From NCBI GenBank assembly GCA_963675595.2, contig CAXXLZ010000002.1:3008001-3072000 (forward strand): a stretch of DNA of 64,000 nucleotides, read 5' to 3'. The notes beneath the pieces are model-generated. The model had not been told where the DNA came from. It worked only from the letters and a program-made list of their open reading frames with translations, and did not search any database. Both the position numbers and the translations under genes were made by a program. Source of the DNA: Thermodesulfobacteriota bacterium. GTDB taxonomy: Bacteria > Desulfobacterota > Desulfarculia > JACQYL01. Shown piece by piece: positions 28,124 to 30,301 of this stretch. Within the stretch, counting starts at the first letter, position 1; each line of letters starts with the position of its first letter.

Positions 28124-30301
28124 TCAGTCAATAATCTCCTCGAAATGGCGTCGCGAAAGCTCGACTTTTTCCGTAGGCCCTTCCGGTCCGGCGTCCAGGT
28201 ATTCCCGGAGCCGATTCATGGTTGCGCGCCGGCAAGCCGCCTGAATTCGAGCCCCGCTCCATCCGACGCTCTTTTTCGCCAGCCATTTCAAATCCACGTC
28301 CTCGGCCGTGGAAAACCGCTTCAAATGGATTCGAAAAATCTCTTCCCGTTCGGCCTCGTCCGGGAGCGTCAACGTTACTTGAAGCTCGAACCTGCCGGGG
28401 CGCATAAGAGAGAGGTCCAGGGTTTCCGGTTGTGACGTGGCTCCAAGAATGATCACGCCACGCAGTTTCTCGATGCCGTCCATTTCGGTGAGAAACTGGC
28501 TGACCATGCGACCGACCACCCTTCCACCTCCGGTGTCCAAACCGCGAAATCCCGCAAAAGAATCGATCTCATCGAAAAACAACACGCAAGGGGCGGCCAG
28601 TCGGGCCTTACGAAAAACCTCCCGAACCCGTTCCTCACTTTCCCCCACGTACTTGCTCAATAGCTCGGGACCCTTGACGGAGATGAAATTCAACCCGCTT
28701 TCCCTACCCACCGCCTGGGCAATCAAGGTCTTACCTGTTCCGGAAGGACCCGTAATCAGGATCCCTTGCGGCGGATCGACACCCAATTCCTCAAAGCGCT
28801 CCGGAAATCTCATGGGCCATTCAATGGCCTCTCTGAGCACCTGCTTGGCATGGGCGCATCCACCCACCTGATCCCAACCCACATCCGGAAGCTCCACACG
28901 GACCTCTCGGATGGCCGAGGGTTCGACTTCTTTGAACGCATGGTCAAAGTCGTCAATCTCCACAAACATGCTCTCAAGGAATTCCGGTGACACCTCGCGC
29001 CCCGAGTTCAGCTCAGGCAGCACGCGACGCAGCGCGTGGATGGCGGCTTCCTGGCAGAAAGCCTTGAGGTCCGCACCCACAAACCCGTGGGTCCGGGAAG
29101 CCCAGGATTCGAGGTCCACTTCCGGCTTCAAGGGCATCTTACGGCTGTGAATCTTAAGAATTTCCAGTCTTCCTCTCTCATCCGGCACGCCCACGGAAAT
29201 TTCACGATCGAATCTGCCGGGGCGGCGCAACGCGGGGTCCAGCGCATTCGGAATATTCGTGGCTCCGATGACAACCACCTGACCCCTGGATTCCAGACCA
29301 TCCATCAGAGCCAACAATTGAGCCACAACCCGCTTCTCGACTTCACCTTCCGTCTTTTCACGTTTGGGCGCTATGGCATCGATTTCATCCAAAAAGATGA
29401 TTGCGGGCGCATTCTCTTGCGCCTTTTCAAAAATTCCACGAATCTTCTCTTCGCTCTCGCCATAATGGCGTTGCATAATTTCCGGGCCGTTCACATGGTA
29501 GAAGTCGGCATGGGTTTCCTGAGCAACGGCCCTGGCGATGAGTGTCTTTCCCGATCCCGGCGGTCCGTGGAGCAGAATACCTTTGGGCGCATCCACACCC
29601 AACCGTTCAAAAAGCTGGGGAAACCTCAACGGAAGTTCCACCACCTCTTTGATTCGCTCGATCTCCCGGTCCAGTCCGCCGATATCTCCATAACCCAAAA
29701 CACCGGTTTTGCCTTCGTCCGCGTCTCCGGTTTCGAGATCGATCACAGTTTCTTCGTTGATGTGCACGGCGCCGCCGGGGACCGTGGAAGCCACCAAAAA
29801 GGCCTCTCTGCGTGTACTCGAGACCTCCAAAGGAATGGTGTTTCCTTCTAAAACGACAAACCCTTTGAGACGGTCGAGCAAAGCCCGCTTGCGATCCGGT
29901 TTCAACAGGATCGCTTTGGGGGGACGCAAAGTCACTGATTGAGCGGCCTCCGGCTCCACGGGCCACAAGGTGACCTTCTGAAATATGGCCGTTCCCGCGT
30001 TTTTCAGGGACAAAGCGTCCAGATGCACCACGGCCTCCGCCCCTCGCACCGGAAGGACCGGTCCGACCGGCACCAGGGCCTTTCCCTCTCCCCCGACCAT
30101 GACGAAATCCCCTTCCTTTACACGAAGAAATTCCAGGTTGCAGGGAGCCATCCGCGCCATGAAGCGGTCTCCGTCTTCCACAAGGGAACGGGCCACGTGA
30201 AGGGATAAATGATGCTCTCCACAGGACTGTTCGCGGCAGTCCTTACATGCGTGATGGTAGGGGTCATGGGCGTGACCGTGATGTGGGCAATCGTGTTCCA
30301 T
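28124..30301 (-). CDS. CDC48/VCP-family double-ring AAA+ ATPase with His/Cys-rich N-terminal leader
   Basis: N domain; D1 [26 protein letters not shown]2 [22 protein letters not shown] 30301 after GAGGA. Confidence 0.9.

Follow-up and report, generated by a model that had tools for sequence, protein, structure and literature searches.

A VAT-like Cdc48 with a conserved, putatively metal-binding Cys4His2 leader in a small clade of Thermodesulfobacteriota

The locus studied here raises the question of what a Cdc48-family unfoldase that begins with a tract of histidines and cysteines might be doing in a bacterium, just behind a string of hydrogenase-maturation (hyp) genes. It lies in a window of 64,000 nucleotides (positions 3,008,001 to 3,072,000 of contig CAXXLZ010000002.1, assembly GCA_963675595.2; genome G000 in our set) from a Thermodesulfobacteriota bacterium, where a minus-strand gene, cdc48, encodes a 725-residue AAA+ protein (Table 1). 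An initial annotation, made from the DNA of the window, described a full N-D1-D2 Cdc48 with a His/Cys-rich leader and proposed that it is metal-responsive and serves the maturation or quality control of Ni enzymes, independently of the proteasome. The description of the gene stands and the Ni role does not; we now lean, with modest conviction, toward a VAT-like unfoldase that stands alone and whose N-terminus includes a metal-binding module for recognition or regulation.

The longest open reading frame (ORF) at the locus extends to an ATG at 30361, which no Shine-Dalgarno sequence precedes. The ATG at 30301 is preceded by one (Table 1), and a purine-rich equivalent of this ribosome-binding site (RBS) stands before the same ATG in 11 related loci, so that all 12 DNA sequences compared agree. 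Differences among these 12 in the leader codons number 507, 402 and 1177 at the first, second and third position, and the codons of the putative Cys and His ligands vary synonymously (TGC/TGT, CAT/CAC). Because the ATG and its RBS recur in 12/12 sequences, and because of this third-position excess, the start at 30301 reads as real and the leader as under purifying selection; the possibility that the true start lies downstream of the His tract, raised with the initial annotation, thus falls away.

Beyond the leader the protein is a complete N-D1-D2 Cdc48, as first described. Pfam CDC48_N covers residues 34-115 with 30.3 bits, short of its cut-off of 35.1, and CDC48_2 covers residues 140-194 with 26.8 bits, past its cut-off of 22.4; two AAA modules (PF00004, E 5e-86) follow, each with its lid. 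NCBIfam TIGR01243, 'CDC48 family AAA ATPase', covers residues 33-720 with 801.8 bits, against a curated cut-off of 802.65. Among solved structures the best match is VAT (5g4g and 5g4f, E 1.5e-235), in an alignment that starts at residue 34. AlphaFold2 (AF2) models the N domain and both rings well; the strands of the N domain run from residue 32 on, with a block predicted local distance difference test (pLDDT) score of 79-96. Nothing is missing from the Walker A and B motifs, the Arg fingers or the pore loops, which are invariant over 63 aligned sequences. The D1 pore loop is RHYG throughout the clade defined below, as opposed to K-[FYW]-Y-G in leaderless homologues, and the D2 loop is KYVG.

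Two further peculiarities had been noticed at the outset, a Ser in place of Asn at sensor-1 of D2 (ATSQP, where D1 reads ATNIP) and a C-terminus (...RRHFEEIID) without the HbYX motif, and both are present. The D2 sensor-1 residue is Ser in 21, Asn in 7 and Thr in 1 of the 29 clade members, and Ser also occurs in 3 of 34 leaderless homologues; HbYX occurs in 0/29 clade members, and in its strict form in only one of the 34 nearest leaderless homologues. Since Ser varies within the clade and 33 of the 34 leaderless proteins likewise lack HbYX, neither trait appears to be distinctive. As for a proteasome, the single match to PF00227 in G000 is a 185-aa HslV encoded between xerC and hslU. Eleven other genomes with leader-bearing cdc48 gave a single PF00227 match in nine cases and none in two, with an HslV-sized open frame in eight of those nine (362 aa in G041); neither in G000 nor in the 11 others did PF00227 reveal a 20S alpha/beta pair. 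With HslV as the sole match in G000, the window Cdc48 is very probably proteasome-independent, as had been supposed.

How widespread is the leader? A word-indexed protein search with the window Cdc48 scored 8000 candidates, of which the best 120 were listed; among these matches are 28 full-length homologues (725-736 aa, 61-87% identity, 97-100% coverage), with archaeal and Chloroflexi Cdc48 at ~50% identity forming the tier below. All 28 carry the leader and begin at the same Met, making 29 with the window protein, and the two nearest are P0002 (87% identity) and P0004. NCBI calls the relatives 'CDC48 family AAA ATPase' or 'AAA family ATPase', and the few clade members with a named host belong to 'Deltaproteobacteria bacterium' or 'Desulfobacca sp.' A FastTree phylogeny of 63 sequences, for which alignment columns 1-40 were left out, places the 29 leader-bearing ones together on a single branch (Shimodaira-Hasegawa-like support 100), apart from the 34 leaderless ones. 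This branching indicates a single origin and suggests that the leader arose once. Phylogeny and gene neighbourhoods were the comparison that the initial annotation had put forward: the former yielded one leader clade, the latter no hyp or lptF gene at 21 other loci (below).

That clade is small. A profile of the first 75 residues, run against 1.84 billion representatives, gave 8 matches at E<=0.001, and three fragments, all from this clade, were the only ones to show the leader. When one genome each for 185,579 species was scanned for the pattern, 11 of these species representatives gave a locus, all of them Thermodesulfobacteriota or 'delta proteobacterium' metagenome-assembled genomes; metagenomes contributed 10 further loci and one spurious match (L030). 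Some of the resulting 21 other loci (11 + 10) come from the same populations and are not all independent. Among 40 relatives, two have any Cdc48 at E<=1e-100 and 38 have none. The other Cdc48 among these 40 is leaderless (L008, G021:C92, 656-3585; 50% identity, aligned from residue 32) and is encoded directly upstream of a gas-vesicle gvpL/gvpF gene.

The leader itself is conserved in ~40 sequences of this one clade of Thermodesulfobacteriota ("delta proteobacterium", Desulfobacca), 39 of which make up our leader alignment (A3). Invariant in 39/39 are M1, C5, P6, H16, H17, C19, K20, C22 and C27, and nearly so P14, D21, R23, Q25 and G28. The number of Cys is exactly four in 38 sequences and five in the remaining one, while His counts span 2-9 (median 4). 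The window protein, whose 9 His and 4 Cys in 31 residues were counted correctly at first, shares the maximum with a single other sequence, P0005. Leaders with 7-9 His belong to deep-branching lineages (P0001, P0002, P0004, P0005, P0021, L011). Where the window protein has H7, H8, H10, H12 and H31, other clade members mostly have Y, E, Q, N and Q. Because the His count varies from 2 to 9 and the Cys core is invariant, the conserved pattern, C5-x13-C19-x2-C22-x4-C27 plus the H16-H17 pair, is best described as a Cys4(His2) knuckle pattern and not as a His tail of the HypB/SlyD type. Of the metal response first proposed, a conserved pattern that looks like a metal site survives, and most of the His do not.

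We envision the following mechanism. By homology to VAT, Cdc48 would form a hexamer and thread substrates through Tyr-bearing pore loops of both rings, and would do so without a 20S proteasome. The 31-residue leader, peculiar to this clade, is joined directly to the first strand of the N domain. A single metal ion, for which Zn is the default guess, is most likely bound by its invariant Cys4 together with H16-H17. In its metal-bound form the leader may make a small knuckle on the N domain, which binds substrates or adaptors, and this knuckle could be a built-in recognition or regulatory module like the N-terminal zinc-binding domain (ZBD) of ClpX. The extra His in this genome would be a lineage-specific embellishment.

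Several results weigh against this proposal. The AF2 pLDDT of the leader is 44-50 with the 63-sequence alignment and 52-56 with the clade-only alignment of 39, and even the clade-only model shows no secondary structure in it except a 3-residue helical turn (residues 10-12); given this low confidence, an ordered knuckle without metal is not predicted. Residues 1-36 match 0 Pfam families at E<=10, without a zinc-finger match and without one to the zf-C4_ClpX model, and the ESM Atlas offered no usable match for the leader. The putative metal binding is read from residue identity, by which Zn, Fe-S and Ni are indistinguishable. The TIGR01243 score, finally, falls 0.85 bit short of its curated cut-off. 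A modelled complex of two leader copies (residues 1-34) with two Zn scored 0.02 against a mark of 0.42 and is neutral on dimerisation.

The leader might instead be a sensor, either a Zn-thiolate redox switch, such as Hsp33 and RsrA are, or an O2/NO-labile [4Fe-4S] site, that toggles the unfoldase under oxidative or metal stress. A stretch of 31 residues in which four Cys and two His never vary would suit such a role, the hosts are anaerobes with ACS/CODH (acetyl-CoA synthase/carbon monoxide dehydrogenase) and hydrogenases, and the want of a stable apo fold in AF2 is as expected of a cofactor-dependent element. The C-x13-C-x2-C-x4-C spacing also presumably resembles the C-xn-C-x2-C-x5-C of WhiB and the N-terminal pattern of FNR. 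However, the leader has no sequence match to such families (Pfam at E<=10, ESM Atlas), no redox-stress genes are conserved near cdc48 in the loci compared, and spacing alone cannot separate Zn from Fe-S. We regard a sensor as unlikely, and find it similarly doubtful that a cofactor-dependent switch (Zn-thiolate or O2-labile Fe-S) gates the N domain such that the protein is active only under oxidative or metal stress. Were it so, the unfoldase would extract or unfold damaged metalloproteins in strict anaerobes, and no other member of the Cdc48 family would be known to carry a redox or metal sensor of its own instead of ubiquitin-type adaptors.

Less probable again, and in our view a rather poor bet, is a leader without any metal role, that is, a conserved flexible tail acting as an autoregulatory plug of the N-domain groove, as a degron or as a docking peptide. 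Such a tail would account for the low AF2 confidence, with its one 3-residue turn, and for the failure to match a metal-binding family in Pfam at E<=10. It accords poorly with four Cys and two His, CxxC included, that are absolutely conserved in 39 sequences while their neighbours vary freely; conserved Cys4/His2 positions amid variable ones are the signature expected of ligand residues and not of a linear peptide motif.

The reading proposed at first would have Ni as the ligand of the leader and Ni enzymes ([NiFe] hydrogenase, CODH/ACS) as the proteins that the unfoldase helps to mature or keeps in order, hence its place after the hyp string. It is largely refuted by the phyletic pattern, and we give it very little credence. 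Adjacency to hyp and the His-rich tract had suggested it, and in its favour are the hypABFDE-lptF-cdc48 order in G000, with a remnant in G001, the leaders of the family-f1 type and other deep-branching lineages, which are the His-richest (7-9 His), and the occurrence of ACS/CODH in all three f1 genomes and of [NiFe] hydrogenases in 10 of the 11 other leader-cdc48 genomes. Comparative genomics gives it no support. The 21 other loci were searched by tblastn with 18 window proteins, later 23 when five neighbour proteins were added; Hyp, LptF and ACS proteins were found at 0/21, and 17 of these loci extend at least 1.4 kb upstream, which suffices to reveal lptF.

Within the family the two sets of genes come apart in both directions. 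G002 (99% complete) has the leader gene, with an 8-His leader, and ACS/CODH, but searches for HypE (protein query, E<=1e-30), HypD (PF01924) and the [NiFe] large subunit (PF00374) found none. G001 (95% complete) has hypA-hypB-hypF-hypD-hypE-lptF in the order of the window and retains HypD, five PF00374 matches and ACS/CODH, whereas its cdc48 is down to 64 codons from the 5' end of the leader-bearing gene, which match P0004 with 89% identity over 55 aa and are followed by unrelated DNA, and no full-length Cdc48 was found there at E<=1e-100. The stub is an ORF at L033:7422-7616 (minus strand, contig C90), directly after lptF. G001 is thus a natural loss of cdc48 that left hypABFDE-lptF intact, and because it kept ACS/CODH and hyp, it shows cdc48 to be dispensable where these persist. 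As regards ACS/CODH, which G002 keeps, the decoupling in that genome concerns hyp and hydrogenase alone.

Further afield, G003, of the same order, has hypABFDE without lptF following. HypD occurs in 8 of the 11 other leader-cdc48 genomes and the [NiFe] large subunit in 10, frequencies as expected of the phylum. In G049, G050, G051 and G047, several [NiFe] large-subunit matches hold a single in-frame TGA, as would be expected for [NiFeSe] selenocysteine hydrogenases. Also speaking against a Ni role are the leader His, most of which are unconserved, the 38 of 40 relatives that have no Cdc48 at E<=1e-100, and lptF, a lipopolysaccharide-export gene with a terminator-like hairpin at its end, which stands between hyp and cdc48. 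The order seen in G000, together with the remnant in G001, therefore points to an arrangement ancestral to one family, probably inherited gene order and not a functional operon, and suggests that the adjacency to hyp is a family-specific accident. Linkage to hyp is in this sense nearly unique, being shared only inside one family, though not strictly limited to this genome.

No conserved partner gene accompanies cdc48; its neighbours vary by sub-lineage. They include a signal-peptide-bearing dienelactone hydrolase gene downstream together with a divergent B12-radical-SAM (S-adenosylmethionine) gene upstream; other sub-lineages show an M16 peptidase together with an unknown ORF of 437 aa, and still others unrelated genes. 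As candidate partners these were rejected: the dienelactone hydrolase, downstream in 6 loci, has a signal-peptide-like N-terminus, and the M16 peptidase, the 437-aa ORF and the B12-radical-SAM gene are each limited to one sub-lineage. In G000 the orthologues of hydrolase, M16 peptidase and radical-SAM gene lie far from cdc48, and the 437-aa ORF has no match in that genome.

In the window, lptF, hypE, hypD, hypF, hypB and hypA stand upstream of cdc48 on the same strand (Table 1), and 154 bp separate the lptF stop (30456) from the cdc48 start codon (30301), in keeping with the initial annotation. So too is the HypB reading frame, which has neither a His tract nor CxxCGC. The start of HypA is M125 of its ORF. 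The sole HupF/HypC match in G000 lies 2.65 Mb from the hyp string (C2:385430-385624), where this hypC adjoins a [NiFe] large-subunit gene (C2:383205-384680). The hairpin at the end of lptF is the only such site in 26600-30700; since shuffled sequences average 6.6, only its position is suggestive. Scanning 26600-30700, which takes in the DNA upstream of cdc48, for sigma-70 promoters gave none on the minus strand and is uninformative.

Beyond hypA follow a plus-strand TSP3/OmpA gene and then the ACS/CODH genes. The former (37830-40775) encodes a 981-aa protein with six thrombospondin type-3 (TSP3) repeat matches and a C-terminal OmpA domain; lying on the opposite strand, it separates the hyp string from the ACS/CODH genes. 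The pterin-binding and CdhD/ACS genes are followed closely downstream by a minus-strand ORF of the RNase_H_2 superfamily (40863-41642, 259 aa). Downstream of cdc48, 1.44 kb (26684-28123) hold no credible gene, at 49% GC against 55.5% for the window. Within this segment, a minus-strand 63-codon stop-to-stop remnant (27596-27790) reads ...PICASRRKIRDDQGQWHPMEEYIQDHSQARFRHGICADCAKKLYPD...; ~150 bp of it has three copies of ~70% identity in the genome (C2:541k, C2:2237k, C1:1511k). We take it to resemble the Cys-rich C-terminal module of sensor and regulator proteins; it probably represents the decayed end of a gene. No Rfam family reached its gathering score in 20000-46000, and 26600-28200 gave only a chance-level match (E 0.96).

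Table 1. Coordinates of cdc48, its parts and its upstream neighbours in the 64,000-nucleotide window
Feature	Coordinates	Strand	Evidence and remarks
cdc48/VAT-type AAA+ gene	28124..30301	-	725 codons + stop; ORF, Pfam, TIGR01243, VAT structures
Shine-Dalgarno GGAAAGAGGA	30307..30316 (30316..30307)	-	5 nt upstream of ATG at 30301
Leader, residues 1-31	30209..30301	-	Cys4(His2) core C5, H16, H17, C19, C22, C27, invariant in 39/39, plus lineage-specific extra His
N domain (double-psi barrel + beta-clam), residues 32 to ~195	29717..30208	-	CDC48_N + CDC48_2, AF2, VAT alignment
D1 AAA module, residues ~203-470	28892..29695	-	Walker A GPPGSGKT, Walker B DEID, pore loop RHYG, sensor-1 N349, RRPGRFDRE
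D2 AAA module, residues ~475-725	28127..28879	-	Walker A GPSGTGKT, Walker B DEID, pore loop KYVG, sensor-1 Ser (ATSQP), MRPGRFEL
Terminator-like hairpin, then TTTTTTTCTT (T-run)	30471..30495	-	Overlaps last lptF codons, upstream of cdc48
lptF	30456..31685	-	Pfam LptF_LptG, E 2e-82; context, outside the system
hypE, hypD, hypF, hypB, hypA string	31660..37277	-	Pfam; context; without hypC

Among known systems, the protein is closest to VAT of Thermoplasma acidophilum and archaeal Cdc48, with which it shares the N-D1-D2 order, ~50% identity to archaeal homologues and the aromatic Tyr of the D1 pore loop, along with the KYVG of D2. It departs from them in its Cys4His2 leader, which is absent from 34/34 leaderless homologues aligned and lies outside the VAT alignment, in having RHYG and not K-[FYW]-Y-G as its D1 pore loop, and in a bacterial host in which no 20S proteasome was found. 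A VAT-like bacterial Cdc48 is already known as a kind; the fused leader is the new part, and searches of one literature library found no paper on a Cys/His leader of bacterial Cdc48. According to the main text of Ziemski et al. (2018, eLife, PMC6017811), Cdc48 outside the Actinobacteria is sporadic in bacteria, groups with archaeal Cdc48 and was probably acquired horizontally, and the presence of any Cdc48 in only 2 of 40 relatives here fits that account; its passages on these homologues mention no Cys/His leader, and the word 'zinc' occurs 0 times in that main text. The same text describes Cpa, an actinobacterial Cdc48-family ATPase on a branch of its own that interacts with the 20S proteasome and, like the present protein, lacks HbYX. 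Unlike Cpa as described there, the present protein appears to group with archaeal-type sequences, and no 20S proteasome was found in its host. The His-rich Ni tails of HypB and SlyD recall the window leader in its 9 His of 31 residues, but His-richness is not conserved in the leader, the Cys are, and the gene is decoupled from hyp.

The closest functional analogue of the leader, if the analogy is apt, is the ClpX ZBD, which the text of PMC9035409 describes as an N-terminal zinc module needed for substrate recognition; both would be Cys4 metal modules at the N-terminus of an AAA+ unfoldase, in ClpX one that governs substrate and adaptor recognition. There is no sequence relationship between the two (Pfam, E<=10), their spacings differ, and the leader is fused to the Cdc48 N domain, not flexibly linked to a single AAA ring. 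The leader is also, we assume, the shorter of the two. Specificity in Cdc48, p97 and VAT normally comes from separate adaptors that bind the N domain. A metal-binding knuckle fused to that domain would be a different, ClpX-like solution, and would offer, in a bacterium without proteasome and ubiquitin, a compact model of the way in which a double-ring unfoldase is steered by N-terminal modules.

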